Source: Candidatus Gottesmanbacteria bacterium UBA6580 (GTDB taxonomy: Bacteria > Patescibacteriota > Microgenomatia > UBA10105 > UBA927). Taken from it: a stretch of DNA of 64,000 nucleotides. The translations under genes were made by a program, and so were the position numbers. The DNA lies in NCBI GenBank assembly GCA_002433895.1, contig DJJA01000003.1, positions 447,745 through 511,744 on the forward strand, read 5' to 3'. Positions 30,988-64,000 of the stretch are shown piece by piece (the stretch's first letter is position 1; every line of letters begins with the position of its first letter). The notes under the pieces were generated by a model, which was not told where the DNA came from, searched no databases, and saw nothing but the letters and a program-made list of their open reading frames with translations.

Positions 30988-31737
30988 ATGAAAGGTGTTA
31001 TACTTGCCGGTGGTCTCGCAACGAGGCTTCGCCCCCTAACCGCCGTAACCAACAAGCATCTTCTGCCGGTCTATAACAAGCCGATGATTTATTACCCGTT
31101 GGAAATGATGAAACGGGTAGGCATGAAAGAGGTGTTGCTCATTACCAGCGGCGGACATGTCGGTGATTTTGCCAACCTCTTATTGTCCGGAGAAGAATTC
31201 GGGCTCAGGCTTTATTATGCGATACAACAAAACCCAACAGGCGGTATTGCGGATGGTCTCAAACTCGCTGAAGAGTTTGCCCAAAAAGAACCTATCCTGG
31301 TGATTTTGGGAGATAACATATTTAATTTTGATCTTACCGCATCACTTAAACGGTTTGAGGATGCCGTCGCGAAGGACAAAAAGGGTGCTATGGTTTTTGG
31401 TGTGCACCGCGAAACGCTCGCGCAACAGTATGGTGTGATAGAGATGGATGCGGAAGGGAAGGTGGTAAGCATTGAAGAAAAGCCGGAGAAACCAAAAAGC
31501 GATATTGCGCAAACGGGTATTTACGTATATGACAACCGGGCATTTGATTTCGTGCGTCAGTTGGTTCCATCAGCACGGGGCCAGTTAGAAGTCACTGATC
31601 TCAATAATATGTATCTCGCGGAGAAATCACTCCGCTGTGAGCTCATTGATTGGTGGGTAGATGCGGGCACGTCTCATGATGAACTATTGCAGGCAAATGT
31701 ACAGGTGGCAGAATTTGTAAAGCAGGGGAAACTCTAA
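30988..31737 (+). CDS. rmlA: glucose-1-phosphate thymidylyltransferase-like sugar nucleotidyltransferase (short form)
   Basis: GGLATRLRPLT ... KHLLPVYNKPMIYYPLE N-terminal nucleotidyltransferase signature. AAAGGAG RBS. Confidence 0.8.
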   Translation: MKGVILAGGLATRLRPLTAVTNKHLLPVYNKPMIYYPLEMMKRVGMKEVLLITSGGHVGDFANLLLSGEEFGLRLYYAIQQNPTGGIADGLKLAEEFAQKEPILVILGDNIFNFDLTASLKRFEDAVAKDKKGAMVFGVHRETLAQQYGVIEMDAEGKVVSIEEKPEKPKSDIAQTGIYVYDNRAFDFVRQLVPSARGQLEVTDLNNMYLAEKSLRCELIDWWVDAGTSHDELLQANVQVAEFVKQGKL

Positions 31738-32753
31738 TGCGTATACTCGTAACAGGAGGAGCCGGGTTTATCGGGGCTAACTTTATCATCTATTGGCTCA
31801 AAAACCACCCTGATGATGAGATCATCAACTTTGATAAACTGACGTACGCCGGTAATCTCGAAAACCTCGCGGCAGTTGACAAAAACCCCCGCTACCGGTT
31901 TATCCAAGGGGATATTTGTGCGGTGGATGCGGTAACATCTGCCATGCAGGGAATTGATACCGTGGTGCATTTTGCCGCAGAAAGCCACGTGGACCGGTCT
32001 ATCCTTGAGGCAGCCCCGTTTGTGATGACCAATGTCGTCGGTACACAGGTGTTGCTGGATGCCGCGCTCAAGGCGAATGTGAAGCGGTTTCACCATGTAT
32101 CAACGGATGAAGTATTCGGCGCGCTTTCATTGGAGACATTAGATAAATTCAACGAGGCTACGCCGTATAATCCGCGGAGCCCATACTCAGCAAGCAAAGC
32201 CGGATCCGATCATTTGGTGCGCGCGTATTACCATACGTTTGGATTGCCGATTACGATCACTAACTGTTCCAACAACTACGGCCCGTACCAATTTCCAGAA
32301 AAACTTATTCCCCTTGCGATCACCAATATTCTTGAAGGCAAAAAAGTGCCGGTATATGGCGATGGGAAATATGTCCGCGATTGGTTGTATGTGGATGACC
32401 ATTGTGAGGCGATCGATGCAGTACTCCAAAACGGTACAGTAGGTGAAACATATTGTGTCGGAGGGGTCACGGAGGATATTAATAATCTGGATATTATTAG
32501 GCTCATTTTAAAGATAATGAATAAAGACGAATCAAGCATTGAGTATGTCACTGACAGGCCGGGGCATGACCGACGTTATGCTGTGGATTGGTCAAAGATC
32601 AAACGGGAGTTGGGGTGGAAGCCAAAAAATGATTTCTATACCTGGCTTATCCAAACAGTTCACTGGTATCAGGAAAACGAAAGCTGGTGGAAGCGGGTGA
32701 AAAGCGGTGCGTATAAAACATACTATGAGAAGCAGTACAAAAACGCAGTATGA
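31737..32753 (+). CDS. rmlB: dTDP-glucose 4,6-dehydratase
   Basis: ILVTGGAGFIGANF, the YSASKAGSDHLV catalytic motif, and the typical C-terminus. 338 aa. Confidence 0.9.
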   Translation: MRILVTGGAGFIGANFIIYWLKNHPDDEIINFDKLTYAGNLENLAAVDKNPRYRFIQGDICAVDAVTSAMQGIDTVVHFAAESHVDRSILEAAPFVMTNVVGTQVLLDAALKANVKRFHHVSTDEVFGALSLETLDKFNEATPYNPRSPYSASKAGSDHLVRAYYHTFGLPITITNCSNNYGPYQFPEKLIPLAITNILEGKKVPVYGDGKYVRDWLYVDDHCEAIDAVLQNGTVGETYCVGGVTEDINNLDIIRLILKIMNKDESSIEYVTDRPGHDRRYAVDWSKIKRELGWKPKNDFYTWLIQTVHWYQENESWWKRVKSGAYKTYYEKQYKNAV

Positions 32754-33646
32754 AATTCATTGGAACCGGACTTTCAGGATTAGTCGGATCTCGGATTGTT
32801 GAACTTCTTTCTCCTAAGCACGCCTTCACGAACTATAGCTTGGAAAATGGGATAGATATCACTGACCGTGAAGGTATTTTATCCCGGATTGCCGGCGAAA
32901 CCGGGGCATCCTGGGTATTACATCTGGCAGCCTATACTAATGTGCAGCAGGCGGAGAAAGACCGGTTGTTGGGTGAAAAAAGCACTGCTTGGAAAGTGAA
33001 TGTGGAGGCGACGCAAAACATTATTGACGCGTGTATAGCGTCTGACAAACGGTTGTTGTATGTCGATACAGACTACGCGTTCGACGGAACCCAAAAAACA
33101 TATAACGAAGATGATACGCCGAATCCACAGGGATGGTATGCCATCACCAAATCAGAAGGAGCCAAGCGCGTACTCGCTATGGGTAAGCAGGGCTTGGTCA
33201 TCCGTATATCCAATCCTTACCGGGCGAATCCGGTGGGTAAGACTGATTTTGCCCATAAAATGCTTGAGCGGCTTATGGCAGGAGAAGCAATTGTTGCTCC
33301 GGTTGATCAGTTGTTTGTGCCGACATTTGTCGACGATATTGCCGCAGGCATCGATGCTCTTACTTCAGGTAATGCAACGGGTATTTACCATGTGGTGGGA
33401 AGCGAGGCGATTTCGCCGTTTGACGCGGCGCGTGCGGTTGCACGTACGTTTGGATTCAATGAGGGCTTAGTAAAAGAAACGTCATTTGCCGCGTATTTTT
33501 CCGGGCGGGCGCCGGTGCCGCAGTACGCGGTGCTTACCAATAACAAAATCCGGGCGCTGGGAGTTGACCTGAGAGGATTTAATGACGGTATCGCGGAAGT
33601 AAAAAAACAGGAAATTTCCGCACCAAAAACTACGGAGCAACACTGA
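32750..33646 (+). CDS. rmlD: dTDP-4-dehydrorhamnose reductase family protein (RmlD-like)
   Basis: RmlD_sub_bind pattern (YVDTDYAFDG, YAITKSEGA). ATGA-coupled to rmlB. Confidence 0.75.
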   Translation: MKFIGTGLSGLVGSRIVELLSPKHAFTNYSLENGIDITDREGILSRIAGETGASWVLHLAAYTNVQQAEKDRLLGEKSTAWKVNVEATQNIIDACIASDKRLLYVDTDYAFDGTQKTYNEDDTPNPQGWYAITKSEGAKRVLAMGKQGLVIRISNPYRANPVGKTDFAHKMLERLMAGEAIVAPVDQLFVPTFVDDIAAGIDALTSGNATGIYHVVGSEAISPFDAARAVARTFGFNEGLVKETSFAAYFSGRAPVPQYAVLTNNKIRALGVDLRGFNDGIAEVKKQEISAPKTTEQH

Positions 33647-33698
33647 AAGTATCCGTATTCTGTACAGGCACTCTTTTTTTTCGTATACTAACAAGATT

Positions 33699-34994
33699 AT
33701 GACTATTTCTTTTATCGGTCATGGTTATGTGGGTCTCGTGACCGCCGCAGTATTTGCGGACTTAGGGAATACGGTATGGGTGGTAGGCCGCACGAAAGAA
33801 AAAATAGAGCGTCTTAAAAAAGGCGACCCTCTGATTTACGAGCCCGGGCTGGAAGAGTTGCTGAAGCGAAACCTCGCCGCAGGAAGACTGAAATTTACTC
33901 TCGATTATAAGGAAGCCGTCGTCGCGTCAGAAGTGGTGTTTATTGCCGTCGGGACGCCATCAAAAGTAAATGGCGAGGCTGATCTGAGCCAAGTATTTGC
34001 CGCAGCTGAAGAAATCGGTAAATCATTGGTGGGATACAAAGTAGTGGTGACCAAAAGCACCGTGCCGCCCGGAACCGGCAAAAAAGTTGCCCAGATTATC
34101 GAACGGGTGCATCCTGCGGGGTCTTCATTTGCGATCGCATCGGCGCCGGAGTTTTTGCGTGAGGGTACAGGCCTATCGGACACGCTTCACCCTGACCGGG
34201 TGGTTATCGGCACTAACTCCGATAGAGCGCGGGATATACTGGTTGAGCTGCATAAGCCGATCGACGGGAAAAAAGTGCTCTGTAATGTAGAAACGGCGGA
34301 GCTTATCAAATACGCGTCAAACTCCATGTTGGCCACCAAGATTTCATTTGCCAATGCTATTTCGTTTTTGGCAGAGAAGGTTGGTGCTGATGTGGAACGC
34401 GTCCTTGAGGGAGTTGGTCTTGACAACCGGATCGGGAGAAGTTTTCTTTACCCCGGAGTTGGATATGGCGGGAGCTGTTTTCCTAAAGATGTGAAAGCCT
34501 TAATCGCGATAGCGCACGAATATAAATATGACTTTACCCTGCTTAAAGCAGTCCACGAAATAAATATGGAGGCAAGGGAGAATTTTGTTAAAAAAATAGT
34601 ATCGCATTTCGGTTCACTGAAAGGAAAACGGATTGCTGTCCTTGGTCTTGCCTTTAAGCCGGATACCGATGACATGCGGGAAGCGCCGTCACTGGATATT
34701 ATTTCATCGCTTATCGATAAAGGAGCTGAGATTGTCGCGTTTGATCCCATCGCCATGAAAAAAGCGAAGGATAAGCTCCCGAAGTCGGTAGGCTTTGCAT
34801 CTGACCCGTATGATGCGGCAAAAGGGGCCGACGCAGTGGCGATTATTACCGAGTGGAACGAGTTCCGGCAAATTGATCTCGTGCGTCTAGCCAAAGGCAT
34901 GAAACATTTGGTATTATTCGATGGGAGAAATATTTATGAACCCACCAAAGTGCGGGAGCTAGGGTTCATGTATTACGGTGTTGGTAGAATGTAA
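33699..34994 (+). CDS. ugd: UDP-glucose 6-dehydrogenase (UDP-glucose/GDP-mannose dehydrogenase family)
   Basis: N-terminal GxGYVG Rossmann motif, GGSCFPKD catalytic Cys motif, and a C-terminal UDP-binding domain. Confidence 0.9.
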   Translation: MTISFIGHGYVGLVTAAVFADLGNTVWVVGRTKEKIERLKKGDPLIYEPGLEELLKRNLAAGRLKFTLDYKEAVVASEVVFIAVGTPSKVNGEADLSQVFAAAEEIGKSLVGYKVVVTKSTVPPGTGKKVAQIIERVHPAGSSFAIASAPEFLREGTGLSDTLHPDRVVIGTNSDRARDILVELHKPIDGKKVLCNVETAELIKYASNSMLATKISFANAISFLAEKVGADVERVLEGVGLDNRIGRSFLYPGVGYGGSCFPKDVKALIAIAHEYKYDFTLLKAVHEINMEARENFVKKIVSHFGSLKGKRIAVLGLAFKPDTDDMREAPSLDIISSLIDKGAEIVAFDPIAMKKAKDKLPKSVGFASDPYDAAKGADAVAIITEWNEFRQIDLVRLAKGMKHLVLFDGRNIYEPTKVRELGFMYYGVGRM

Positions 34995-35016
34995 TAATTT
35001 TTTTAAGGAGGAAAAT

Positions 35017-35973
35017 ATGGCTAAAAAAGCATTGATCACTGGTATTGCAGGTTTTGTCGGCAGTCATATGGCAGAGCTTTTGCTTTCCAAAGGTTTTGAA
35101 GTATATGGACTGAGCCGCTCACGAAGCAAAATGGATCATATCGAGTCTATTAAATCCCAGCTTCAGCTGGAAGACGCGGATTTGCTCGATAGCCACAGTC
35201 TGTATACGACGATCAATAAGATCAAACCGGATTATATATTCCATCTTGCTGCACAGTCATTTGTGCCGACCTCATGGGGGTCACCCGCAGTAACGCTTGA
35301 AGTAAACATCGTGGGAAGTGCGAACGTCTTTGAAGCGGTCCGTCAAGTCGGCATTGATCCCGTTATCCAAATTGCCTGTTCTTCCGAAGAATACGGATTA
35401 GTGTACGAAAACGAAATCCCCATTAAAGAAACAAACCCGTTGCGCCCGCTTTCACCATACGCGGTAAGTAAGCTGGCAATGGATTATTTGGGATACCAGT
35501 ATTACGAATCATATAAGATGCGTATTATCAGAACGCGCGGATTTAATCATACCGGTCCGCGGCGCGGCGATACGTTCGCGGAATCGACATTCGCGAAGCA
35601 AATAGCGCTTATTGAGAAGGGTAAGCAGGAGCCGGTTATCTATGTCGGTAATCTGGAGGCATCACGCGACTATACGGATGTCCGCGACATGGTAAAAGCG
35701 TATCTTTTGGCAGTAGAAAAATGTGATCCGGGCGAAGTGTACAACATTGCAACCGGCACAACCATCAAGATTTCTGACGTCTTAAAAATGATGTTGGGGA
35801 TGAGTAAGGTGAAAGTGGAAATTAAGGAAGATCCAAAGAGGATGAGACCTTCAGATGTCCCCATTCTTATTGGTGACAACACGAAGTTTGTTGAAAAAAC
35901 CGGATGGAAGCCTGAAGTGCCCTTCACCAAGACTGCTGAGGACCTTCTCAACTACTGGAGAGAGCGAGTGTAA
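35017..35973 (+). CDS. GDP-mannose 4,6-dehydratase/Rmd-like NAD-dependent epimerase-dehydratase
   Basis: GIAGFVG, SPYAVSK, FNHTGPRRGDTF, RDYTDVRD and DPKRMRPSDV align with the Gmd/Rmd subfamily. AAGGAGG RBS. Confidence 0.8.
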   Translation: MAKKALITGIAGFVGSHMAELLLSKGFEVYGLSRSRSKMDHIESIKSQLQLEDADLLDSHSLYTTINKIKPDYIFHLAAQSFVPTSWGSPAVTLEVNIVGSANVFEAVRQVGIDPVIQIACSSEEYGLVYENEIPIKETNPLRPLSPYAVSKLAMDYLGYQYYESYKMRIIRTRGFNHTGPRRGDTFAESTFAKQIALIEKGKQEPVIYVGNLEASRDYTDVRDMVKAYLLAVEKCDPGEVYNIATGTTIKISDVLKMMLGMSKVKVEIKEDPKRMRPSDVPILIGDNTKFVEKTGWKPEVPFTKTAEDLLNYWRERV

Positions 35974-37100
35974 TGGTCTCTGCCAATATGAAAGCAGTTA
36001 TAATCCTCCCGACGTATAACGAGCGGGAAAACATTAAAGCCATGCTCACAAAGCTTGTGAGCGTGACCCGTCTCATAAAAGGATACACATTTACGTATCT
36101 TATCGTGGATGACACATCTCCTGACGGTACGCAGGATGTTGTGAATGAATTTGCCAAAAGCAACCCTCAGGTAAAAATTCTAAGCGGGCAAAAAGAAGGA
36201 TTAGGTAAAGCATTACTTCGTGGTATGACGTATGCCATCGATACATTAGGTGCCGACGTTATCGCCCAGATGGATGCGGACTTGTCACATGACCCTGAGC
36301 GTTTGCCAGAGTTTTTCAAAAAAATATCCGAGGGTGATGATTTTGTGGTCGGAAGCAGATATATACATGGCGGATCCATACCGGAAAACTGGGGTATACA
36401 CCGGAAGATTTTCAGCGTCGTCGGAAACGCGATCGTGCGGTTCGGACTAGGATTTCCATATGTGCATGATTGGACCGGCGGGTATCGGGTATTTAAGAAA
36501 GAGTATTTCGAAAAATCCAAAGCGAAGGTATCCCGTTATAGCGGTTACGTGTATCAGATAGCATTTCTTCACAATGCCATAATTGAGGGTGCGCGTGTCG
36601 GCGAAGTTCCTATCCATTTTACCGATCGAAGATACGGCAGGTCAAAGATAGCGCCGCTGCAGTATATTCGGAATGTATTTATGTATGTCGGAACAGCGAG
36701 GGCAAAACAACTCCGTCATGGCCCGTTTGCGAAATTTGCCGTCGTCGGCAGTGTTGGGTTTGTCATAAACACTACGATATTAGAGCTTATGGTGGGCAAT
36801 GGGTTTCATCCCGCTATGGGAAGCGCCATCGGGGCCGAATGTGCAATCATTTCTAATTTTTTCTTTAACAACAACTGGACGTTCAGGGGGAAACGGATTC
36901 AGGGCCTCCGGGTGATCCCCAAATTTTTGCAGTTTAACGCAACAAGTATTGGCGCCCTGCTTATTCAGTCTGGAACTGTAGCGCTCGGCACGGCACTGTT
37001 CGGAGTTTCTCTGTACCGGTGGTTTTATCTTCTTGGGGTCGGCATCGGACTCGTATGGAACTACACGATGTATTCGAAAGTCATCTGGAAGAATAAATAA
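35973..37100 (+). CDS. GT2 polyprenol-phosphate sugar (mannose/glucose) synthase with a C-terminal GtrA-like 4-TM domain
   Basis: IILPTYNEREN ... DDTSPDGT ... QMDADLSHDP (Dpm1-like DxD) plus a GtrA-type tail. Confidence 0.85.
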   Translation: MVSANMKAVIILPTYNERENIKAMLTKLVSVTRLIKGYTFTYLIVDDTSPDGTQDVVNEFAKSNPQVKILSGQKEGLGKALLRGMTYAIDTLGADVIAQMDADLSHDPERLPEFFKKISEGDDFVVGSRYIHGGSIPENWGIHRKIFSVVGNAIVRFGLGFPYVHDWTGGYRVFKKEYFEKSKAKVSRYSGYVYQIAFLHNAIIEGARVGEVPIHFTDRRYGRSKIAPLQYIRNVFMYVGTARAKQLRHGPFAKFAVVGSVGFVINTTILELMVGNGFHPAMGSAIGAECAIISNFFFNNNWTFRGKRIQGLRVIPKFLQFNATSIGALLIQSGTVALGTALFGVSLYRWFYLLGVGIGLVWNYTMYSKVIWKNK

Positions 37101-39447: not shown

Positions 39448-39479
39448 CGGGAGCGTGCCCCCGGTAAAGATATATCGAC

Positions 39480-40938: not shown

Positions 40939-40985
40939 AGCTCAGACCAGTGTAGCATATGGTTCTCCTGCCTACAGCGTTCGGC

Positions 40986-41015: not shown

Positions 41016-41024
41016 TGGATAGGT

Positions 41025-56211: not shown

Positions 56212-56231
56212 CCGGTGGAATTATTGTGATT

Positions 56232-57146: not shown

Positions 57147-57151
57147 GCACT

Positions 57152-58018
57152 ATGCAATGTCTTCTTTGTATCAAGCCACTTGAGAAGTATCTCTATAAGA
57201 ATGGTTACTGGATATACCGGTGCCCCATTTGCCATCTGGGACAAACCGATCTTAAAAAAAATTATAAGCAATTTGTAAAGGAGTTTTATTCTAAAGGCTA
57301 CTACGAAGGCGATCCTACACGCAGCGCGTATGCGGATTATGAGCTTGATAAGCCGTTGATCGTAAGAAATATGAGCAAGCTCCTTTCCTTTGTCGTTCCT
57401 AAAAAGAAAACAGGAAGGTTGCTCGATGTCGGATGTGCATTTGGTTATTTTGTAGAGCTCGCCCTTTCCCGGGGATACGACGCCTACGGATTTGATCCAT
57501 CATCATTTGCGGTTTCACAAGCGAGGAAGCTTGTAGGGAAAAAACGTATCACTGAAGGAACTATCGGAGATGTTGCGTATCCCACAGCGAGTTTTGACAT
57601 TATCACTATGTTTGATGTGTTTGAACACCTTGAAGATCCGCTTAACGATATGAAGAAATTGTCCGCCCTTCTTAAGCCTGATGGCGTTATTATTATCGCG
57701 ACCGGCGATACCCGGAGTCTGGCTGCTAAAATTATGAAGCGCCGTTGGACATTTTTCATACCTCCCCAGCATATTTTCTTTTTTGACAGAGAAAACGTTG
57801 CCTCGCTTTTGAAGCGCGCAAAATTACGGCCTGGCGCGTGGTATCGGGTAGGAAAGTGGTTGAGCTTGGGGTATATTCTCCATTTAGCCAGAACGACCGG
57901 AGAAAGCAGCGCCGCTCAGCTGATCTATAAGCTGGTGAACAAGACTATCCTCATGCGGTTGCCATTGTATGTTCCTATGAAAGATAATATGGTCATTCTT
58001 GCGAACAAGCTGCCATAA
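57152..58018 (+). CDS. class I SAM-dependent methyltransferase with an N-terminal Cys4 zinc ribbon
   Basis: CLLC ... CPIC ribbon, then LLDVGCAFGYF (motif I) and ITMFDVFEHLEDP (Methyltransf_11/23-like). Confidence 0.8.
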   Translation: MQCLLCIKPLEKYLYKNGYWIYRCPICHLGQTDLKKNYKQFVKEFYSKGYYEGDPTRSAYADYELDKPLIVRNMSKLLSFVVPKKKTGRLLDVGCAFGYFVELALSRGYDAYGFDPSSFAVSQARKLVGKKRITEGTIGDVAYPTASFDIITMFDVFEHLEDPLNDMKKLSALLKPDGVIIIATGDTRSLAAKIMKRRWTFFIPPQHIFFFDRENVASLLKRAKLRPGAWYRVGKWLSLGYILHLARTTGESSAAQLIYKLVNKTILMRLPLYVPMKDNMVILANKLP

Positions 58019-58041
58019 GGATTATTATTGATGAGTTACAT

Positions 58042-59745
58042 ATGAATTTATTCCGAACGTATTGGAGGCCCACGCTTATTTTTCTTCTGCTCCTTAGTAT
58101 TTTTTTAACCAACGCATTCCACGAAAAATATCCTGACGAGTTTGACAGTATTGTGGGTGGGAGATATATCACCGAAGGGAAATTGCCGTACCGGGATTGG
58201 TTTCAGCATCATCAACCGGGAGCCTATGTCATGGCGGCGACCATCCTCCCGTTTAGCGGCCAGTCATTCGTAAAGTTTAGGATAGGGTGGGAAGTAATGT
58301 TATTTGCCATGCTTGTGGGTTCGTATTTTTTGCTCAAAGCAAGGCTTCCGAAGCGCGATATATCGTTTTACCTCGTGCTTTTATTTGTTTTGGGAATTTC
58401 TGCAACCTATTTTTGGGGGCACATGCTGCTTGCGGATACGTTGGCCGGGTATTTTATGTTGCCGGCATTCGCGCTTCTTTTTCTTAAGGATTACTACAGG
58501 GAAAAATTCGGGGCAACCGATCTCGTTATTGTTGGATGGTTCGCGTTTTTGAGCTGGTTTACCTCCATGACATATATATTTATCGTGGTTGCACTATCGC
58601 TTTACGCGCTCTACCTGTTTATTGCTACTAATACTCAAAAAGCTGTGTTTATGAGGTTGCTTCACGGTATTGGTTTGCTCGCTGTGCCGTATGTGGTGTT
58701 TGGACTTTATTTGCTCTTAAGCGGCAGTATCAAGGATTATTATTGGGCAAACGTTGTTTACAATACTAATTATTATATTTATAACTACCCTCACGAACCG
58801 GGAGCGCCCATTAATCCAATCCGGTATGCCGCGGTCATTTTTGATACATTTATCAATAACTACACGCTTGCGGTGTGGGGCGCAAAAGAGTTTCCGTTAA
58901 GCAACCCCGTGCAGGTGACCATAGCGTTTTCATCCGTGGTTGCGATCATACTGGTGATACTACGCAAACGCTGGTTATTTTTATTCCCGCTTCTGACGAC
59001 GCTTATTTTTTCTAACGCGAGAAGTAATCCCCAGTCCATACGGGAGACCGATTACCAGGCGTTTGTCTATATTATTACTTCGATGTTTAACGGGCTTTTT
59101 TCACTATGGGCAATCCGTGAGCTCATCGATGAGGAAAAAGTAGCCTTCTCTAAAAAAATAACGCTTTCGTTACTCTTTATGGCTCTTACGTTATATTGGA
59201 TTGCAACTCCCATTTACTTCGTGATGAAGATGGAGCAGAAATTTTTTCCGAAATATATGGGAAAGTTGCCGCTAATTTATGACCGGCCACAAGTGGCGCC
59301 ATACATAAACGCGATTGTTTCTCCCGATGATTTAGTTTTTATTGGCCCGTTTGAATTTGAGGAATTGTTTTATCTTCACACCAAACGGCAACCGAGTAAA
59401 TATCACTGGTTTCTAAATCACGCAGCAACGAGCAAAATTAAAGACGAGCTGATAGAGGATTTATCCCGGAACCGCCCGAAGATAGTCGTATTTAACCGGG
59501 GGTTTGCTCCATGGGGCGGAGACGCCACTACCTATAATTGGTGGATGTCGGATTTCCTCGATGAACATTATTTCAGATTATTTTCGCTTAACGAAACACT
59601 TACTGACAAGCAGTACCGCTGGAAGATAGGAAAGACCGAAAATTTCGACATAGATGGGATGTTTAATTTTGATAAACGGTATCAGGCAGAACTTCTGGAT
59701 AAGATGATTTCATTGGGCTATATTGAGGTTATCCCCGGTAAATAA
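58042..59745 (+). CDS. hypothetical polytopic membrane protein with a C-terminal soluble domain
   Basis: About 10 TM helices. No family recognised. Inside the glycosylation island. Confidence 0.5.
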   Translation: MNLFRTYWRPTLIFLLLLSIFLTNAFHEKYPDEFDSIVGGRYITEGKLPYRDWFQHHQPGAYVMAATILPFSGQSFVKFRIGWEVMLFAMLVGSYFLLKARLPKRDISFYLVLLFVLGISATYFWGHMLLADTLAGYFMLPAFALLFLKDYYREKFGATDLVIVGWFAFLSWFTSMTYIFIVVALSLYALYLFIATNTQKAVFMRLLHGIGLLAVPYVVFGLYLLLSGSIKDYYWANVVYNTNYYIYNYPHEPGAPINPIRYAAVIFDTFINNYTLAVWGAKEFPLSNPVQVTIAFSSVVAIILVILRKRWLFLFPLLTTLIFSNARSNPQSIRETDYQAFVYIITSMFNGLFSLWAIRELIDEEKVAFSKKITLSLLFMALTLYWIATPIYFVMKMEQKFFPKYMGKLPLIYDRPQVAPYINAIVSPDDLVFIGPFEFEELFYLHTKRQPSKYHWFLNHAATSKIKDELIEDLSRNRPKIVVFNRGFAPWGGDATTYNWWMSDFLDEHYFRLFSLNETLTDKQYRWKIGKTENFDIDGMFNFDKRYQAELLDKMISLGYIEVIPGK

Positions 59746-59751
59746 ATACCG

Positions 59752-61713
59752 CTATTGCATGAGTAAGGGCGGAGGTAAGCGCTCCAGATCAATCTTCATG
59801 AGGGTGACATGTTCTGTTTTTAGTTCGGGTACCAGCCAGTAAGCAGACTTGGTCGCTTGCACCGCGACACTGGTATCTAATATCAGATAGTCGATCCCTG
59901 AAAGCTTCAGAAGTTTTTTTATTACCCTGGGCGAGCCGGGCTTTGTGATGACGTTCAGGGTATGCTCACGGTCAAGAGTGCGGGCGCCAAATTGCCGGAG
60001 AAGCCCGGGTGAAGACAGATATTGCTGACGGCCGGTGAGAAGATACAAGTACGGGCCGTTTTGATCCGGGCTGATATACCGGGCGGCATTGGCGATAAGC
60101 GAGTCTTCCGGAGTCGTGCGCAGATAATCGATGACCTTTTGTGTATCCGGTTCAACGATCGGGTAAAGATCCCTGACGCGTTTGATATGCTCATTCATTT
60201 CATACGCGGCTCTTGGAAGTGTCATGACAATCACGATAATGGTAATAAATGCATATATAAGTTTGCGTTTGATGAGGATTTCCTGCAGCTTGGTCAGCAC
60301 GAGGGCCGCGTAAAGTGAAAGGAAGAGAAATACGTTGACATGGAAGTTGAATGTATTGCTTCCTCCCGTATTTTGCTGGAAGAATGATCCGATAATAAAG
60401 TGAATGATGAGTGAAGTTACCAGGATGAGGTGCATGTAAAACGGGAACCGTGATGATGTGCCCCGAATAGGGATGAGACCGATAAGTTTGGTGCCAAATA
60501 TGCAGACCATGTAAATCGCCATAAACAGGAGGTCGTATAGCAGCGCCTTGAAGTGTTTATTATCCTGCTCAAAAATCATCCGCGCCATGTCGAGGTGTAT
60601 GAGCGAAAAGCCCGGTTGGGAGATAAAGTTTTCGAACCGCCAAAATTTTACGAAATATAATCCGCCGGCTTCAGCGTTTACAGGGAGATATACAATAGCG
60701 CTTAGTATGAGCGAAACTGTAAGCAGCATCAGCGTGTTCCGTTTTCCTTTTATAAAGTCGTATAACGCGAGCGCGACGAGACCGGTGAGTAAAAAAAATG
60801 CAAGATACACCTTAAGTCCTACCGTGGCTGATAAAAGAAGTGAAAGCGTTATTATTTTCCTGACGTCCAGCTTTTCCCGCCAGAGTGAGTAAAGCGAGAG
60901 CCATACGAGTACGATGACTACGGCATAGCTCCGCGGAGGGTTGCTAAGGAACCGGATACCATCTTCAAGTGAGCTCCCCGGGAACGAAAGGACGCGTTCC
61001 TGTATAAGCGGAATAAGGTAAATCATGTCGCCGCCAAAATAGAAAAAGAAAAGAAGCCATCGGGTGAACACAGGCTTCACGCTAAGGCGCCACGAAAGCG
61101 CGATAAGCGCAAGTCCTAAGGATAACGAAAGTAAAACACCCGAATAACGGAATTGGAGCAATATCTGATCGACATGAAATACCCTTACCGTGTCGGCGAT
61201 GACCAAATTAGACCAGTAATGGTAGTTATGGAGTGTTTGCCCTGTTATACCCGGGTAGTGAGGTGGAAAGGATTCAAGAATCGACTTTGTTATGGATGCG
61301 TACCAAATATTATCGTTTGGGTCGCCGCAGCAAGAAACCCAGGTGTTTCCAGAAGGTTGGAGAACATTCCAGAGCACTATGCTTTGACAGGCAACCCCGA
61401 TAATAAGGAGAATTAATGTTGGTTTATCTTTCCCTATCCCGATGATTGAGTCCCGGATTTCACTGAGAACCTTAGGGTGTTTTATTGTAATCCAAAGAAA
61501 AGCAGCGACACATACCCCCAGATATCCATATACTGCCAAAGGCAGGTGAAGCCATCCAAAAATCCATGCCTGCCATCCCCAAAGCGCTATTCCCAACGGG
61601 GCGGCGAGCACCGTTTGGTATGCCGGCGGCGTCTTCGTTAGTCTGAGCAGGAGCCATCCGGGAATCCAGTATGTGACTGTAAAAATAAGGAGGATATAAA
61701 AAAATACTTCCAT
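59752..61713 (-). CDS. hypothetical large polytopic membrane protein with a C-terminal soluble domain (start chosen at MEVFFYIL, clearing the upstream gene)
   Basis: More than 12 TM helices. The ORF-track start at 61818 would overlap the upstream gene by 104 nt. No family recognised. Confidence 0.5.
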   Translation of the reverse strand: MEVFFYILLIFTVTYWIPGWLLLRLTKTPPAYQTVLAAPLGIALWGWQAWIFGWLHLPLAVYGYLGVCVAAFLWITIKHPKVLSEIRDSIIGIGKDKPTLILLIIGVACQSIVLWNVLQPSGNTWVSCCGDPNDNIWYASITKSILESFPPHYPGITGQTLHNYHYWSNLVIADTVRVFHVDQILLQFRYSGVLLSLSLGLALIALSWRLSVKPVFTRWLLFFFYFGGDMIYLIPLIQERVLSFPGSSLEDGIRFLSNPPRSYAVVIVLVWLSLYSLWREKLDVRKIITLSLLLSATVGLKVYLAFFLLTGLVALALYDFIKGKRNTLMLLTVSLILSAIVYLPVNAEAGGLYFVKFWRFENFISQPGFSLIHLDMARMIFEQDNKHFKALLYDLLFMAIYMVCIFGTKLIGLIPIRGTSSRFPFYMHLILVTSLIIHFIIGSFFQQNTGGSNTFNFHVNVFLFLSLYAALVLTKLQEILIKRKLIYAFITIIVIVMTLPRAAYEMNEHIKRVRDLYPIVEPDTQKVIDYLRTTPEDSLIANAARYISPDQNGPYLYLLTGRQQYLSSPGLLRQFGARTLDREHTLNVITKPGSPRVIKKLLKLSGIDYLILDTSVAVQATKSAYWLVPELKTEHVTLMKIDLERLPPPLLMQ

Positions 61714-61714
61714 A

Positions 61715-63388
61715 TTATTTCGAAAGTGCGGTGACAAACACCGCCGGCGCGTTTCTTCCTGATAGGGTGTCGATATACTGGTATTTGTCACGGTTTTTTT
61801 CAAATTCAATACGGGCAAGGATGAATAGCGTTTTCTCCCGGCTGGTCGCGATTAATTTTTTAGGATCAACCGTTGTGTCATAGAGAAATATTTCATTTTT
61901 ATCCCATTCGGCGCCGGTAAACATATACTTACCCCAACCCCGGGTTGTTCCCTCTCTCTGGTAAAGTCGGGGATCGGTATTGCCCCAGTACAGCATAAAA
62001 ATATAAGGCCGCCAGTGGTATCCTGAGATGACGATACGGTCGTATGACGACTCATTCGCTTTTACGTACCGGATCATTTGCTCATATCCGTCTCCAAACG
62101 CAAGTGCATTTTGTGTGGGATTGACGATTAAATATGAGTGATAGAAAGCATAGAAGAAATACACAAGGAGGAGGGCAAACGGAATTACTCCATAAAATAG
62201 CCTCCGCTTTCGTTCAATAGCAAGCATTAGTTCCGCCGCTCCGAGTCCGGAGCAAATAGCAAGAAATGGGGAAGCAAGCAGTGTCCGGAGCGCGTTGGGT
62301 TGATTTGTGCTTAATGCTCCCGGCAGAAACGCTGCTAAAAACCAGGAGATAAGCAGCCATTTTGAGGGGTGTGAGAAGTTAATAATATACAGGACTCCAA
62401 TTGCTATGGTGACGATCTCAAACGGGTGCTGCAGCCCGTACGCGCTTGTGCCGCTTTCAAATACATGTAGCGGCGCTATGTTTTTCCAGTAATTATCCGC
62501 GGCAGCGGCAATAAGTGCGGTTTTTTGGTTATACAATATTTTGGTAACTATGGTGGGGCTTTCGGCATATTTTTTGATAAACGTGTCTTTCCACGCAAGA
62601 TAGTTCGGATCATTGACGATGCTGACGATAGATATCCGTTCTAATCCTCCGGGGGTTATCATCTGATTGCCAATAGGAAGGAGGGTGATGACAAATAAAA
62701 AGATCGAAGTAAAAATTATGCCTTTATATGAGGCAAGCTTGTTTCGTTGTACCAGTACATATGAAAGGAGGACAAACGGAATTACCAGTCGCACAGAATA
62801 ATAGAAGTACACCGATACGCTCAATAAAAGTGCCGCAAGTATAAGCGCGCGATGTTTTCGTAATGAAAGGAGTAACATATAGGTGCCGAAGCTCAAAAAA
62901 AACAGCGCGCCGTTTGATTCAAATAACTGCCGGGAAAAATTGATATGCCAGGGCGATATCGCGAAGAAAAAAGCGGCTGATAAAGCATATACCTGTGCGG
63001 GTAGTATGCTTGTTGATTTACCTGAGTGATCCCGGTACTGTTTTATAAGTTCATATACCAGCAGATAGACGATAAGTATTGTCAATGATCCGAGTAACGC
63101 TGAAGGGACACGGGCGCCCAACGCAGTGCGTCCGAATAGCAGCACCGAGGGGATAGTGGCGTACACCATGCCGGGAAGTTTATAGTCGTCAAAAGATTTA
63201 AATAGGAGTGGATACGGCTGTCCATATTCATCTTTTCCGGTTACTGCAAGGGAATACGCGTTGTACGCGATTGCTGTTTCATCATGCGAAAGAGATGGCG
63301 GTACGGTGGTGATCCGGTAAAAGCGCAGGAACGTACCCAATAAAACGATTCCCAAAAGTAAGAGTAGATAGGTATATTTTGGTTTCAT
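61715..63388 (-). CDS. GT-C glycosyltransferase, ArnT/PMT-like (GT39-type)
   Basis: YRITTVPPSLSHDETAIAYNAYSL first-loop DE motif and about 12 TM helices. C-terminal domain paralogous to the next gene. Confidence 0.75.
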   Translation of the reverse strand: MKPKYTYLLLLLGIVLLGTFLRFYRITTVPPSLSHDETAIAYNAYSLAVTGKDEYGQPYPLLFKSFDDYKLPGMVYATIPSVLLFGRTALGARVPSALLGSLTILIVYLLVYELIKQYRDHSGKSTSILPAQVYALSAAFFFAISPWHINFSRQLFESNGALFFLSFGTYMLLLSLRKHRALILAALLLSVSVYFYYSVRLVIPFVLLSYVLVQRNKLASYKGIIFTSIFLFVITLLPIGNQMITPGGLERISIVSIVNDPNYLAWKDTFIKKYAESPTIVTKILYNQKTALIAAAADNYWKNIAPLHVFESGTSAYGLQHPFEIVTIAIGVLYIINFSHPSKWLLISWFLAAFLPGALSTNQPNALRTLLASPFLAICSGLGAAELMLAIERKRRLFYGVIPFALLLVYFFYAFYHSYLIVNPTQNALAFGDGYEQMIRYVKANESSYDRIVISGYHWRPYIFMLYWGNTDPRLYQREGTTRGWGKYMFTGAEWDKNEIFLYDTTVDPKKLIATSREKTLFILARIEFEKNRDKYQYIDTLSGRNAPAVFVTALSK

Positions 63389-63389
63389 A

Positions 63390-64000
63390 CTATTTGTCCG
63401 TATCGATGACTACAAACTGCGCTGTATTATCCGGCAGGCGTATGGTTGCGGTTATTTTTGGTCCGAGGGTATCCGGCGCTTCATCGCGGTTAACAATAAG
63501 CAGTGTGTTAGGGCGGGCCATATCCTTATCCCAATCGATAGCACGGAATGAAAACCTTCCAAATCCTGCAACATCAGTAAATCCGTCCCGTGAAATAGGG
63601 TAGCGCACGGCTTGTTGCTGATAATCCCGGGGGTTATAGCCGCTATAAAACAATACATAGATATAGGGTGATGTTTCAGGGTGCGTCATAATAACATCTT
63701 TACCGCTGTTTTCTGGGCGCATAAGTAGCGGTGTGAGCATCTTGTATGCGTATCCCCAATTGGCGGCTTCCTTGACGGGGAAGTGGGCATAATACCTATC
63801 AAGATAGTATCCCATGGTACTTCCATAAAAAATAATAAGAATTGCACAAAGTGCAGCGCTTGCTTTTTTGGGTATCTGATGCATGAGTTCATTTATTCCT
63901 GCGGCCGTAGCGAGCGCGAGCGCCGGGACAATGGCCAGCATGCGGTTGCTATGGGGCGCGTCTTTGGTAATCGCCGCGGCAACTCCGCCAATGATGAGCC
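63390..64000 (-). CDS. ArnT/PMT-like GT-C membrane protein, 3' portion (N-terminus lies beyond the window end)
   Basis: The frame stays open to position 64000. The C-terminal soluble domain resembles that of 61715 (PYIYVLFYSGYNPRDYQ versus PYIFMLYWGNTDPRLYQ). Confidence 0.6.
   Translation of the reverse strand, partial: LIIGGVAAAITKDAPHSNRMLAIVPALALATAAGINELMHQIPKKASAALCAILIIFYGSTMGYYLDRYYAHFPVKEAANWGYAYKMLTPLLMRPENSGKDVIMTHPETSPYIYVLFYSGYNPRDYQQQAVRYPISRDGFTDVAGFGRFSFRAIDWDKDMARPNTLLIVNRDEAPDTLGPKITATIRLPDNTAQFVVIDTDK

Follow-up and report, generated by a model that had tools for sequence, protein, structure and literature searches.

The DNA analysed here (64,000 nucleotides, the window) belongs to the genome of an uncultivated Candidatus Gottesmanbacteria (Microgenomates, CPR/Patescibacteria). 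Positions 30988-64000 hold about two-thirds, on the left side, of a locus that spans at least 54 kb and gathers approximately 21 genes for GT-C-type membrane glycosyltransferases in a single cluster. This cluster accounts for about 4-5% of the DNA of a small genome (~1.13-1.23 Mb). Its genes within the window are listed below with the matches or other grounds for their assignment.

30988..31737, plus: g01, RmlA-like sugar-1-phosphate nucleotidyltransferase (NTP_transferase), 249 aa; PF00483 2e-54
31737..32753, plus: g02, dTDP-glucose 4,6-dehydratase RmlB; TIGR01181 1e-145
32750..33646, plus: g03, RmlD-like 4-ketoreductase; RmlD_sub_bind 3.8e-50
33699..34994, plus: g04, UDP-glucose 6-dehydrogenase-type NDP-sugar dehydrogenase; three UDPG_MGDP_dh domains
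35017..35973, plus: g05, Gmd/Rmd-family SDR; GDP_Man_Dehyd 3.7e-86
35973..37100, plus: g06, polyprenyl-phosphate hexose (mannose-type) synthase, GT2 with 4-TM GtrA/DPMS domain; PF00535 2e-28, PF04138 4e-19
37100..38698, plus: g07, GT-C, PMT_2 family (group A); PF13231 2.5e-11
38695..39447, plus: g08, soluble GT2, polyprenyl-phosphate-sugar-synthase-like; PF00535 1e-28
39486..40631, plus: g09, GT-C, MptA/B-family (GT87-like) membrane mannosyltransferase-like; precomputed PF26314 MptA_B_family
40609..40938, minus (antisense): SemiSWEET-type small sugar transporter, 109 aa, between g09 and g10; MtN3_slv 2.3e-8, PQ-loop 1.9e-6
41025..42551, plus: g10, GT-C, divergent PMT_2 (GT39/ArnT-like); homologs and hhalign, no Pfam match of its own
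42548..44080, plus: g11, GT-C, PTPS_related/YfhO superfamily; g12 paralog
44077..45741, plus: g12, GT-C, PTPS_related/YfhO superfamily; PF10131 3e-11, PF09586 5e-8
45713..46462, plus: g13, soluble GT2, polyprenyl-phosphate-sugar-synthase-like; PF00535 2e-21
46449..47900, plus: g14, MOP-family (Wzx-type) flippase; Polysacc_synt_3 1e-52, MOP flippase NF007773 1e-31
47897..48802, plus: g15, GT2; PF00535 4e-26
48799..49719, plus: g16, GT2; PF00535 2e-19
49694..50458, plus: g17, GT2, g15 paralog (BLASTP 2e-28); PF00535 3e-15
50428..52767, plus: g18, GT-C, YfhO family, 779 aa; PF09586 1.5e-22
52764..53825, plus: g19, GT4; Glycos_transf_1 1.5e-19, start per L006 gene call
53887..56211 (alternative start 53761), plus: g20, GT-C, YfhO family, 774-816 aa by start choice; PF09586 2.6e-17
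56232..57146, plus: g21, GT2, g16 paralog (BLASTP 1e-24); PF00535 4.5e-21
57152..58018, plus: g22, SAM-dependent methyltransferase with N-terminal CxxC...CxxC zinc ribbon; Methyltransf_23 1.6e-27, cysteine motif in translation
58042..59745, plus: g23, GT-C fold protein, 567 aa, family without Pfam model; AlphaFold2 and Foldseek
59752..61713, minus: g24, GT-C fold protein, 653 aa, weak DUF6541 link; AlphaFold2 and Foldseek
61715..63388, minus: g25, GT-C, PMT_2 group B, 557 aa; weak TMEM260-like/PMT_2 matches 3.5e-4, 4.8e-4
63390..64000, minus: g26, GT-C, PMT/PMT_2, 544 aa when complete, of which the window includes the C-terminal 203 codons; frame open to 64000

The cluster runs on beyond position 64000, a continuation that the preliminary description of this DNA had missed. 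L006, a second record of this locus, matches the window at 100% identity across the overlap and supplies six further GT-C genes of the same genome, and L091, from a relative whose proteins are 87% identical, shows another four together with GT2/GT4 genes; the tally of ~21 is thus composed of 11 genes in the window, six from the same genome and four seen only in the relative. The 11 large polytopic membrane proteins between 30988 and 64000 occupy 18.1 kb of 33.0 kb. At 14 of the 22 plus-strand junctions, counting g18/g19 with the L006-based start at 52764, neighbouring genes overlap by 1-31 bp, which makes the preliminary term "largely translationally coupled" a fair one, though the array is not fully co-directional as had been stated: g24-g26 are encoded by the minus strand and run towards g23, from which a gap of 6 bp separates them. 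Neither a priming phosphoglycosyltransferase nor a Wzy-type polymerase or an LCP-type ligase turned up in a scan of nearly all upstream ORFs of at least 120 aa and of all genes of the locus and its continuation, a result that speaks against the glycan pathway proposed below.

Among the sugar-nucleotide genes, g02 passes the NCBIfam equivalog TIGR01181 (485 bits, cut-off 365 bits), and g04 reaches 455 bits with TIGR03026 (cut-off 190 bits) and matches TuaD at 1.7e-160. The NCBIfam scores of g01, g03, g05 and nearly all transferases are far under the equivalog cut-offs and do not fix sugar specificities. For g01 the rmlA model TIGR01207 gives 6e-69 and 232 bits, under its 361-bit cut-off, while g03 scores 163 bits with the rmlD model, under the 224-bit cut-off, and matches the RmlD structure 3SC6 at 1e-20. 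As rmlC was not found anywhere in the window, nor adjoining g03 in this lineage, the dTDP product is uncertain. The closest relative of g05 is GDP-6-deoxy-D-lyxo-4-hexulose reductase (PDB 2PK3, RMD, 8.7e-84, full length), and this gene is the most conserved of the locus, with a median identity of 81% across relatives.

Three GT2 genes, g06, g08 and g13, have polyprenyl-phosphate-sugar synthases as their best matches. The first aligns over its full length (residues 5-368 of 375) with the solved Pyrococcus dolichol-phosphate-mannose synthase (PDB 5MLZ, 6.8e-40) and shares its architecture; a separate GtrA gene adjoins a GT2 in the related locus L090. In NCBIfam, g08 scores best with PgfS, Dol-P-hexose transferase and ArnC, each far under its cut-off, and its paralog g13 (BLASTP 5.6e-28) with PgfS, Dol-P-hexose transferase and AglJ. 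A weak likeness to the rhamnosyltransferase subfamily is seen in g16 (TIGR01556 5e-18, 65 bits, under the 201-bit cut-off). The SemiSWEET gene, which the preliminary description also overlooked, occupies this spot in only six of 80 related loci and is a lineage-specific insert, probably outside the core system. The rmlA-like, rmlB, rmlD-like, ugd and Gmd/Rmd-like genes reported earlier are present as g01-g05 (Pfam, NCBIfam and PDB matches), as are a synthase with a GtrA tail (g06, GtrA_DPMS_TM), a Wzx-like flippase (g14), a zinc-ribbon methyltransferase (g22) and eleven large polytopic membrane proteins; the six GT2/GT4 genes counted besides the synthase are actually seven (GT2 at 38695, 45713, 47897, 48799, 49694 and 56232; GT4 at 52764).

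All 11 large membrane proteins are GT-C-type glycosyltransferases and not transporters, nine being placed by Pfam, NCBIfam or profile comparison and two (g23, g24) by AlphaFold and Foldseek, and the whole locus contains at least seven GT-C subfamilies. An acidic dyad after TM1, a hallmark of GT-C enzymes (PMC8035078), is conserved in g07 (D44/E45/D48, invariant across 41 sequences), g10 (D38/E39, invariant), g11 (D36/D37), g12 and g23 (D32/E33/D35, with D132 also conserved). PF13231 is found in nearly all of the 120 g10 homologs listed, which are named as GT39/ArnT family, and the g10 profile aligns with the g07 family over its full length (hhalign 96.6%). The paralogs g11 and g12 (BLASTP 5e-32, hhalign 100%) align with the YfhO family at 99.1% and 99%, respectively, and g20 resembles g18 at 1.9e-84 (BLASTP). 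With TIGR03459, g09, which has about nine hydrophobic peaks, scores 7e-10 and 38 bits, far under the 439-bit cut-off. A phmmer search with g25 recovers full-length g26 (9e-57) and h32 (2e-63), and the complete g26 gene in L006 matches PF02366 and PF13231. The two YfhO-like (g18, g20) and two PTPS-related-like (g12 and its paralog g11) proteins had been recognised correctly. Of five supposed ArnT/PMT-like enzymes, those at 37100, 41025, 61715 and 63390 are PMT_2-related and the one placed at 39480 is of MptA/B type (PF26314, TIGR03459), and the 183-aa gene drawn at 63390-63941 is really the end of the 544-aa g26 protein.

The two proteins left unclassified, at 58042 and 59752, indeed match no Pfam model above threshold; it is their predicted structures that identify them as GT-C. 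For g23, which has no Pfam or NCBIfam match and whose 397 homologs are all "hypothetical" where named (the close ones being unnamed or Patescibacteria/Gottesmanbacteria/Roizmanbacteria records), the AlphaFold2 model has a pLDDT of 92.7 and all 11 Foldseek PDB matches with E < 1e-3 are GT-C enzymes. Distant relatives carry a fused N-terminal GtrA domain and one passes the PMT_2 GA threshold; the g23 family is distantly tied to PMT_2. In g24 (pLDDT 91.7), where DUF6541 matches weakly (0.006, with a weak match in nine of 44 family members), the same holds for 17 of 17 matches, among them DPY19 at 7.5e-9, STT3, AglB and AftA at TM 0.49. Together the two lists comprise STT3/AglB/PglB, DPY19, ArnT, AftA and ALG12, and although the TM-scores against solved GT-C enzymes are moderate (0.40-0.49), both lists are exclusively GT-C.

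Conservation differs between the two halves of the locus. Genes g02-g17 are contiguous and in identical order in 37 of 47 loci (species representatives having full flanks), even as g10 identity falls to ~48% among the loci compared, and the left 20 kb, a module closed by g18, is among the lineage's most syntenic features; its core, g08-g14, is also found in Levy-, Roizman- and Woesebacteria. In the right half, by contrast, gene content and order differ among relatives, with rearrangement, paralog expansion and the gain and loss of tandem PMT_2 paralogs.

The analysis demonstrates which family or fold each protein has, how far the locus extends and how it is conserved. On this footing the gene content moderately favours, judged on sequence, a locus for the synthesis and elaboration of a cell-envelope glycoconjugate at the external side of the cytoplasmic membrane. 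In the order of steps we infer, the activated sugars made in the cytoplasm would be a dTDP-6-deoxyhexose (g01-g03), UDP-glucuronate (g04) and a 6-deoxyhexose derived from GDP-mannose (g05), from which the soluble GT2/GT4 enzymes g15-g17, g19 and g21, with the methyltransferase g22, may assemble a lipid-linked glycan for export by g14. The DPMS/GtrB/ArnC/PgfS-type enzymes g06, g08 and g13 would charge polyprenyl phosphate with single sugars, transferred outwards by the GtrA-type domain of g06 or by g14, and the ~21 GT-C enzymes would use these extracellularly in extending, branching and decorating an acceptor, presumably a polymer or lipoglycan and not a protein. The fixed module g01-g18 may produce a lineage-wide core structure and the shifting PMT_2/YfhO/PTPS paralogs of the right module species-specific elaborations.

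Since enzymes of the PMT_2 and YfhO types are capable of protein glycosylation as well, the acceptor could nonetheless be a protein. The enzymes of the PMT_2, YfhO and PTPS_related families would then move polyprenyl-phosphate sugars onto secreted or surface proteins (S-layer, pili, lipoproteins), as in the precedents of Pmt in actinobacteria and the Pgf system of Streptococcus mutans (PgfS/PgfM1/PgfE/PgfM2), and the reason for so many paralogs would be that each handles its own sugar or target protein. PgfS is the top NCBIfam match of g06, g08 and g13, and PgfM1/PgfM2 are the sole ones of g18, all far under cut-off; g26 and g31 match PF02366 (PMT), and the enzymes that g23 and g24 resemble most in structure (STT3/AglB/PglB, DPY19) modify proteins. 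The gene set also parallels the Haloferax Agl genes for N-glycosylation, which comprise a nucleotidyltransferase, UDP-Glc dehydrogenase, Dol-P GT2s, a methyltransferase, a Wzx-like flippase and a GT-C enzyme, and models for AglF, AglM and AglJ match g01, g04 and g06 under cut-off. However, the structural likeness is generic to GT-C, g23 has no visible WWDYG-type motif, neither the locus nor its surroundings within the window, where the upstream genes are housekeeping, contain a gene for a candidate target, MptA/B and GT87 are polysaccharide-building families, and ~21 GT-C genes are far above any known system of this kind. Protein O-glycosylation is rather unlikely.

Less probable still are several merely clustered GT-A/flippase/GT-C units, each adding one sugar to polymers, teichoic-acid-like or polysaccharide, whose synthesis is encoded elsewhere in the genome. 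The GT2-GT-C adjacencies g06-g07 and g08-g09 do resemble CsbB-YfhO, GtlA-GtlB and GacI-GacL, listed as decoration pairs (PMC8035078), and YfhO and PMT_2 are domains of these enzymes, but the nucleotide-sugar genes, five more GT2/GT4 genes, methyltransferase and MOP flippase constitute a backbone pathway, ~21 GT-C genes are served by only three synthase-like GT2 genes, and 16 genes that stay collinear between species point to a single integrated pathway. The earlier word "island" implies a surface-antigen locus like those for O-antigen or capsule, acquired horizontally and variable between strains. This is very improbable and, for the left module, largely refuted: from g18 rightward the variation fits, but the left 20 kb is highly syntenic, which makes that word misleading, the G+C content (0.44-0.49) matches the remainder of the window, and the flanks are housekeeping with mobility genes absent. 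That the membrane proteins are transporters or unrelated proteins beside a conventional cytoplasmic polysaccharide pathway, as the absence of a Pfam match above threshold in six of 11 (four with none at all, two weak and sub-threshold) might suggest, is refuted by profile-profile, paralogy and structure searches that put all 11 in GT-C, transporters appearing for g23 and g24 only at Foldseek probability <0.2; these HMM and structure results support the lipid-linked extracytoplasmic glycosylation proposed at the outset, which the three synthase-like GT2 genes on the donor side fit as well.

Literature searches found no published description of the locus, in agreement with the earlier statement that no single characterised pathway contains this combination. 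Two further features favour an envelope glycoconjugate. The MptA/B and GT87 families polymerise actinobacterial lipomannan, and here the MptA/B-type g09 and GT87-type g30 share a locus with a Pren-P-mannose-type synthase. Whereas classical decoration systems pair synthase and GT-C enzyme 1:1 (PMC8035078), three synthase-like GT2 genes stand here against ~21 GT-C genes, a ratio that points to the building of a structure and not to the addition of single side-chain sugars.

The large membrane proteins that fill the locus from 30988 onward are glycosyltransferases of the GT-C type. The preliminary description had proposed this for most of them, and when transporters and unrelated families were considered as the alternative by profile HMM, paralogy and structure, all eleven turned out to be GT-C. 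Members of the GT-C superfamily cross the membrane with 8-13 or more helices, and a hydropathy scan gives 6-12 peaks in each of the ten full-length proteins and 2 in the truncated g26 fragment (genes are numbered g01 to g26 from left to right across the window).

GT-C genes of the window, with acidic residues that are 94-100% conserved in the family alignments
37100, plus strand: g07, PMT_2; D44/E45/D48
39486, plus strand: g09, MptA/B-type; single Asp, D31
41025, plus strand: g10, PMT_2-related; D38/E39
42548, plus strand: g11, PTPS-related-like; D36/D37
44077, plus strand: g12, PTPS_related and YfhO; D31/D32
50428, plus strand: g18, YfhO; single Asp, D69
53887, plus strand: g20, YfhO
58042-59745, plus strand: g23, family lacking a Pfam model; D32/E33/D35
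59752, minus strand: g24, family lacking a Pfam model (weak DUF6541 link)
61715, minus strand: g25, PMT_2-related
63390, minus strand: g26, PMT/PMT_2 type

Four of these proteins pass the Pfam gathering thresholds directly (26.1 bits for PMT_2, PF13231; 28.5 for YfhO, PF09586; 26.4 for PTPS_related, PF10131), namely g07 as PMT_2 (44.5 bits), g18 and g20 as the two YfhO-like proteins already proposed (80.3 and 62.9 bits), and g12 as both PTPS_related (42.9 bits) and YfhO (32.3 bits). The second protein that had been called PTPS-related-like, g11, has no direct match and keeps that name through its hhalign alignment with g12 (100%), both proteins also aligning with the YfhO family (99%). The protein at 39480 had been taken as a possible ArnT/PMT enzyme and is instead of MptA/B type, matching the MptA model TIGR03459 and, in precomputed matches, PF26314 (MptA_B_family); g09 had no match in our own Pfam scan, the copy of which apparently lacks PF26314. 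Its 38 bits against an equivalog cut-off of 439 bits, together with a PF26314 match at family level only, make g09 a relative within the MptA/B family and not an MptA ortholog. The PMT_2 threshold is failed by g10 (no match), g25 (20.8 bits) and g23 (no match). Nearly all of the 120 homologs listed for g10 carry PF13231 and are named as GT39 or ArnT family; its family profile aligns over the full length with that of g07 (96.6%) and finds no real match among PDB sequences, only GABA receptors by chance at E ~0.05. A tight paralog group (E 1e-50 to 1e-95) joins g25 with g26 and with g31, h32 and h33, GT-C genes beyond the right end of the window, and members of this group pass PMT_2; g25 and g26 are assigned to GT-C by this paralogy. 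The 63390 gene, described earlier as ArnT/PMT-like, is of PMT/PMT_2 type, and the size of 183 aa given for it was wrong, the fragment being the tail of a 544-aa gene cut at the window end. As g10, g25 and g23 are placed through homolog annotation, hhalign, paralogy or transitive matches alone, they should be called PMT_2-related and not members by the curated threshold.

An acidic pair lies directly after the first transmembrane helix in g07, g10, g11, g12 and g23. An acidic motif (DxD/DE/DD) in the first extracytoplasmic loop is a hallmark of GT-C enzymes (PMC8035078). The GT-C enzymes are predicted to draw on sugars linked to lipid phosphate at the outer face of the membrane, a prediction supported by context: the locus has three GT2 genes resembling Pren-P-sugar synthases as well as a GtrA domain, and relatives of g23 carry GtrA fusions.

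The two proteins at 58042 and 59752 had been left unclassified. The g23 family comprises 397 homologs, all 'hypothetical' where named and, where the source is named, from Patescibacteria, Gottesmanbacteria or Roizmanbacteria; the g24 family comprises 110, and DUF6541 is weakly matched by 9 of 44 g24-family members. AlphaFold2 models of both (mean pLDDT 92.7 for g23 and 91.7 for g24) show some 12-14 long helices followed by a C-terminal alpha/beta domain, and every Foldseek match to the PDB at E < 1e-3 is a GT-C enzyme (11 for g23, 17 for g24). These include STT3, AglB, PglB, DPY19, ArnT, AftA and ALG12 and, further down the list, PIGU, ALG6, AftD and Emb; no transporter reaches a probability of 0.2. 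TM-scores of 0.40-0.49 point to a fold shared with GT-C enzymes and to no specific family. Profiles of the two families found nothing real among PDB sequences (chance GABA receptor matches, E ~0.05), and hhalign showed no significant similarity to the other families of the locus; both are classified by structure, with transitive matches in addition for g23. Membership of g23 in the oligosaccharyltransferases was considered and rejected: it has no STT3 Pfam match, its profile finds no oligosaccharyltransferase among PDB sequences, and it shows no WWDYG motif in the C-terminal domain, its likeness to STT3, AglB and PglB being one of fold (TM 0.40-0.45).

A profile search with the g23 family among 1.84 billion proteins returned 1442 cluster representatives. 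Three of ten distant relatives tested (P0416, P0422 and P0447, of 670-710 aa) have a GtrA_DPMS_TM domain at the N-terminus, joined to a body resembling the 58042-59745 protein, and one of the ten passes PMT_2. We know of no earlier description of a flippase-like GtrA domain fused to a GT-C transferase body, and this fusion ties the g23 family to polyprenyl-phosphate-sugar chemistry. Proteins of the g24 family share an almost invariant Cys-Cys pair (C129-C130) with an invariant Asp after it, giving CCGDxxDN in a predicted extracytoplasmic loop, and acidic residues deeper in the protein (D135, E251/D252). Judged from its sequence, this loop may be a catalytic or metal-binding one that replaces the acidic dyad after the first transmembrane helix.

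The sugar-nucleotide genes described earlier are all present in the ORF listing and in the Pfam and NCBIfam matches: an RmlA-like nucleotidyltransferase (g01), RmlB (g02), an RmlD-like reductase (g03), a UDP-glucose-type dehydrogenase (g04) and a Gmd/Rmd-family SDR (g05). RmlB reaches equivalog level in NCBIfam, the RmlA-like and RmlD-like genes score under their cut-offs, and the nearest solved structure to g05 is the GDP-6-deoxy-D-lyxo-4-hexulose reductase 2PK3 (8.7e-84). The set is incomplete as RmlABCD, rmlC being found nowhere in the 64-kb window. At the g01/g02 junction (31737) rmlA directly adjoins rmlB with a 1-bp overlap, and an RmlC-like gene lies between the two in more distant Gottesmanbacteria loci (L052, L066, L062 and L035, at ~500-1200). 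In the lineage of the window, either rmlC has been relocated elsewhere or a different dTDP-6-deoxyhexose is now made. The synthase g06 has the GT2 domain and GtrA/DPMS tail ascribed to it and aligns end to end with the dolichol-phosphate-mannose synthase of Pyrococcus (5MLZ, 6.8e-40); a MOP/Wzx flippase gene (g14) and a methyltransferase with an N-terminal CxxC...CxxC zinc ribbon (g22) are likewise as described, and the six GT2/GT4 transferases once counted are seven besides g06. Three proteins, g06, g08 and g13, are candidates for loading sugar onto polyprenyl phosphate, and their top NCBIfam matches are PgfS, ArnC, AglJ, Dol-P-hexose transferase and PpgS, all under cut-off. No match to Bac_transf, Glycos_transf_4, Wzy_C or LCP occurs in the scanned ORFs of the window and its continuation, the upstream scan (bases 1-30988) covering almost every ORF of 120 aa or more. 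Of the parts of a Wzx/Wzy-dependent pathway (priming phosphoglycosyltransferase, Wzx flippase, Wzy polymerase, chain-length regulator or ligase) only the MOP/Wzx-type flippase is seen among these ORFs, which does not make the locus a member of that pathway.

The array is tightly packed, with 14 of 22 plus-strand junctions overlapping, which bears out the translational coupling reported before; it is not co-directional throughout, the last three genes lying on the minus strand and converging on g23. Its only large gap, 393 bp between g09 and g10, holds an antisense gene missing from the earlier account.

40609-40938, minus strand: SemiSWEET-type sugar transporter, 109 aa (MtN3_slv 2e-8, PQ-loop 2e-6)

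Of 80 related loci, only 6 carry this gene between g09 and g10, all of them from close relatives, and it thus appears to be a recent insertion into an otherwise fixed order. To the right, the array runs beyond the window. Locus L006 is identical to the window over 12.3 kb (100%) and continues for 9.4 kb, and locus L091, on a 1.17-Mb contig of a relative with 87% protein identity, continues past the content of L006.

Continuation of the array, in order
L006, after the rest of g26: YfhO, 745 aa (g27, by precomputed match)
L006: PTPS_related, 544 aa
L006: PMT_2, 496 aa
L006: GT87-like, 419 aa (g30)
L006: PMT/PMT_2, 540 aa
L091, further GT-C genes: three PMT_2-type (one at 25.7 bits, below 26.1) and one PTPS/YfhO-like (YfhO 25.5 bits, sub-threshold)
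L091, thereafter: GT2, GT4, GT2

The PMT_2 threshold is passed by the L091 proteins of 496 aa (ortholog of g29), 540 aa (ortholog of g31), 558 aa and 546 aa; for the window genome's own g26, g29 and g31 the PMT_2 assignment comes from precomputed matches. Counting both continuations, the locus spans at least 54 kb and holds about 21 GT-C genes, which fall into seven or more subfamilies; the size is a lower bound, as the array has not ended at the right edge of the L091 DNA examined. It takes up ~4-5% of a genome of ~1.13-1.23 Mb.

Conservation was followed with one genome per species in 543 loci that hold a g10 relative, the best 80 of which were compared. In these 80 the order from g01 to g18 recurs nearly unchanged, and g02-g17 are contiguous, in the same order and on the same strand, in 37 of the 47 loci with full flanks, g10 identity within collinear loci falling to ~48%. 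A core of g08-g09-g10, an extra GT-C gene, g11-g12, GT2 and Wzx also occurs in Levy-, Roizman- and Woesebacteria. Median identities are 81% for g05, 74% for g04, 70% for g02 and 44-56% for the GT-C genes. From g18 rightward, gain, loss and reshuffling of PMT_2 paralogs leave only small blocks intact (g31-h32, h35-h36), and tandem runs of five to seven PMT_2 group-B paralogs (resembling g26, g31 and h32) occur in metagenome loci L162, L155 and L166, with up to seven in L162, which suggests that GT-C genes of this right module arise and are lost quickly. Loci of distant g23 relatives are rearranged and still rich in GT-C genes. Since the left order is fixed across species and the right part varies, the locus is not an island in the usual sense, as it had been termed, and consists instead of a deeply conserved core and a changeable periphery. 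The closest GTDB species representative, Candidatus Gottesmanbacteria UBA5942, shows 88% protein identity in g10 and ~79-82% at the DNA level, which places the organism in the Microgenomates group of the CPR bacteria.

Proteins of the window are found at 100% identity on sludge-bioreactor metagenome contigs (the genome occurs in samples SRR5325083, SRR1506987 and JGI 3300005689), and G+C is flat across it (0.44-0.50). The 31 kb upstream of the locus are housekeeping (LysRS, SerRS, SecA, RuvABC, RF2, FtsEX, M23 peptidase, TsaE, Sua5) and hold several genes of separate interest.

Genes upstream of the locus
1420-3723, plus strand: 767-aa protein with a class I LysRS domain (tRNA-synt_1f, 3.6e-81) and a C-terminal B3_4 domain (5e-21)
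11131-12384, plus strand: DsbA/Thioredoxin_4 protein
12469-15553, minus strand: MacB/HlyD-type ABC export system, near both DsbA-like genes
16183-17034, plus strand: second DsbA/Thioredoxin_4 protein, matched by models in two stretches, as though duplicated or rearranged
28723-29043, plus strand: gene called as TsaD, only 87-106 aa, adjoining TsaE and Sua5

The LysRS-B3_4 fusion is unusual because B3_4 normally resides in the beta subunit of phenylalanyl-tRNA synthetase. A normal TsaD has ~340 aa, and the short gene is perhaps a fragment, or else a remnant resembling TsaB.

From the gene content, the locus most likely belongs to the known class of multi-component transmembrane glycosylation systems, in which a GT-A enzyme loads a sugar onto polyprenyl phosphate, a flippase of GtrA or Wzx type carries the sugar outwards and a GT-C enzyme of YfhO/PMT_2 type attaches it to a polymer of the envelope (PMC8035078, PMC5836110). 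Within this class, the locus probably assembles and elaborates a conserved envelope glycan and builds much of it on the outside of the membrane. Sugars would be loaded by g06, g08 and g13, GT-C enzymes would build the glycan largely on the outer side, and a common core would come from the left module, species-specific additions from the right one. In actinobacteria, lipomannan and arabinogalactan are built outside the membrane in this way by MptA/B, GT87, Aft and Emb enzymes. The main rival, which we consider rather unlikely, is that proteins are O-glycosylated, as by Pmt or by the Pgf system of Streptococcus mutans: PMT_2 and YfhO enzymes are capable of both reactions, and among solved structures g23 and g24 most resemble protein-modifying enzymes (STT3/AglB/PglB and DPY19). 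Envelope-glycan assembly is favoured on account of the scale and ratio that set the locus apart from known systems, ~3 loaders for ~21 GT-C enzymes, and of the co-linear array that also holds a full set of nucleotide-sugar genes, five further soluble GT2/GT4 transferases, a methyltransferase and the MOP flippase. A bolder form of the envelope-glycan reading, improbable as a joint proposition, is that the locus is a complete extracytoplasmic polymerisation machinery for a lineage-defining Microgenomates envelope glycopolymer, in which the glycan would be primed on polyprenyl monophosphate by the DPMS-like GT2 enzymes in place of a classical phosphoglycosyltransferase, mostly polymerised by GT-C enzymes and moved en bloc to the final acceptor by g23 or g24. 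By analogy, such a machinery would be a counterpart of mycobacterial lipomannan/arabinogalactan or archaeal Dol-P glycan assembly. Every model shares the same weak points: a priming phosphoglycosyltransferase, a Wzy polymerase and an LCP ligase were not found in the scanned proteins, nor rmlC in the window.

Literature searches on glycosyltransferases of Gottesmanbacteria, Microgenomates or CPR bacteria turned up no description of the locus; Peregrinibacteria are mentioned in passing for their copies of Dol-P-Man synthase (PMC4736985), and Saccharibacteria for transferases of PIM type (PMC6031116). A length of at least 54 kb, ~4-5% of the genome, ~21 GT-C paralogs and 16-18 genes fixed across dozens of species argue that an elaborate surface glycan is central to the biology of these organisms. 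To our knowledge, CPR bacteria (Patescibacteria) do not synthesise lipids, nucleotides or amino acids, and their envelope chemistry is essentially uncharted, as almost none are cultivated. An elaborate surface glycan could serve in host attachment, protection or recognition, and the conserved core and variable periphery predict a shared glycan core with species-specific decoration. As the organisms are uncultivated, this is hard to test; the two GT-C families lacking a Pfam model and g06, with the architecture of a solved Dol-P-Man synthase, are concrete targets. The locus, among the densest GT-C arrays known to us, offers a lead into CPR envelope chemistry that would mildly surprise specialists and is useful for the study of how specificity diversifies by tandem duplication.

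Among known systems, those of Gram-positive bacteria (CsbB/GtcA/YfhO, GtlA/GtlB, L. lactis CsdAB/CD/EF and S. pyogenes GacI/J/K/L; PMC8035078, PMC5836110) use the same GT-A, flippase and YfhO/PMT_2 GT-C parts. They differ in having one GT-A per GT-C and a single side-chain sugar, whereas the Gottesmanbacteria locus combines ~3 loaders with ~21 GT-C enzymes of at least seven subfamilies, in a CPR host of ~1.13-1.23 Mb, and an ABC exporter, priming transferase and LCP ligase are not seen in it. The gac (group A carbohydrate) and lactococcal cwps loci likewise cluster Rml and GT2/GT4 genes, the cwps locus also having a conserved and a variable part. The S. mutans Pgf system (PgfS, PgfM1, PgfE, PgfM2) shares a GT2 synthase, two YfhO-type GT-C enzymes and a sugar-nucleotide-modifying SDR, and in NCBIfam g06, g08, g13 and g18 match models of PgfS, PgfM1 and PgfM2 best or exclusively; scores of 25-75 bits against cut-offs of 500-1500 mean that these are not orthologs. 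Pgf, moreover, consists of four genes and targets adhesins, whereas no target protein is evident at the Gottesmanbacteria locus. The Arn pathway (Ugd, ArnA-D, ArnE/F, ArnT) resembles the run g04-g07, which has Ugd, SDR, GT2 (ArnC-like matches of 1e-13 to 3e-15) and a PMT_2/ArnT-like GT-C in the same logical order. Unlike Arn, the locus lacks an aminotransferase, a formyltransferase and a deformylase, g05 is Rmd/Gmd-like and not an ArnA decarboxylase, and g06 is nearest to Dol-P-Man synthase and not to ArnC; as far as we know, a lipid A acceptor is not expected in an organism with a CPR envelope.

The N-glycosylation set of Haloferax volcanii (AglF, AglM, AglJ/G/I/E/D, AglP, AglR, AglS, AglB) consists of a nucleotidyltransferase, UDP-glucose dehydrogenase, Dol-P-dependent GT2, methyltransferase and Wzx-like flippase, with no pyrophosphate-priming enzyme, one GT-C that adds a sugar outside and one GT-C transferase. 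This parts list matches the Gottesmanbacteria locus, the AglF, AglM and AglJ models matching g01, g04 and g06, although all Agl matches are under cut-off and the locus has no STT3/AglB member by sequence. In actinobacterial assembly (Ppm1, PimE, MptA/MptB/MptC, EmbA-C, AftA-D), many GT-C enzymes polymerise a whole domain from polyprenyl-phosphate monosaccharides. The Gottesmanbacteria locus is similar in placing the MptA/B-family g09 and the GT87-family g30 beside the Pren-P-mannose-type synthase g06, and in the presence of AftA, AftD and Emb among the structural matches of g23 and g24. It differs in that an arabinose donor pathway (UbiA/DprE type) is not seen, in similarity far under equivalog level (38 against 439 bits for TIGR03459) and in the packing of its genes in one locus, whereas the mycobacterial lipomannan/arabinogalactan genes are scattered over a 4.4-Mb genome. 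Since every component falls in a known superfamily, the Gottesmanbacteria locus is not a new kind of system. It is a distinct variant, set apart by its density of GT-C paralogs, its ratio of loaders to GT-C enzymes, two families lacking a Pfam model, the collinearity of 16-18 genes across a CPR order and a cost of ~4-5% of a minimal genome.
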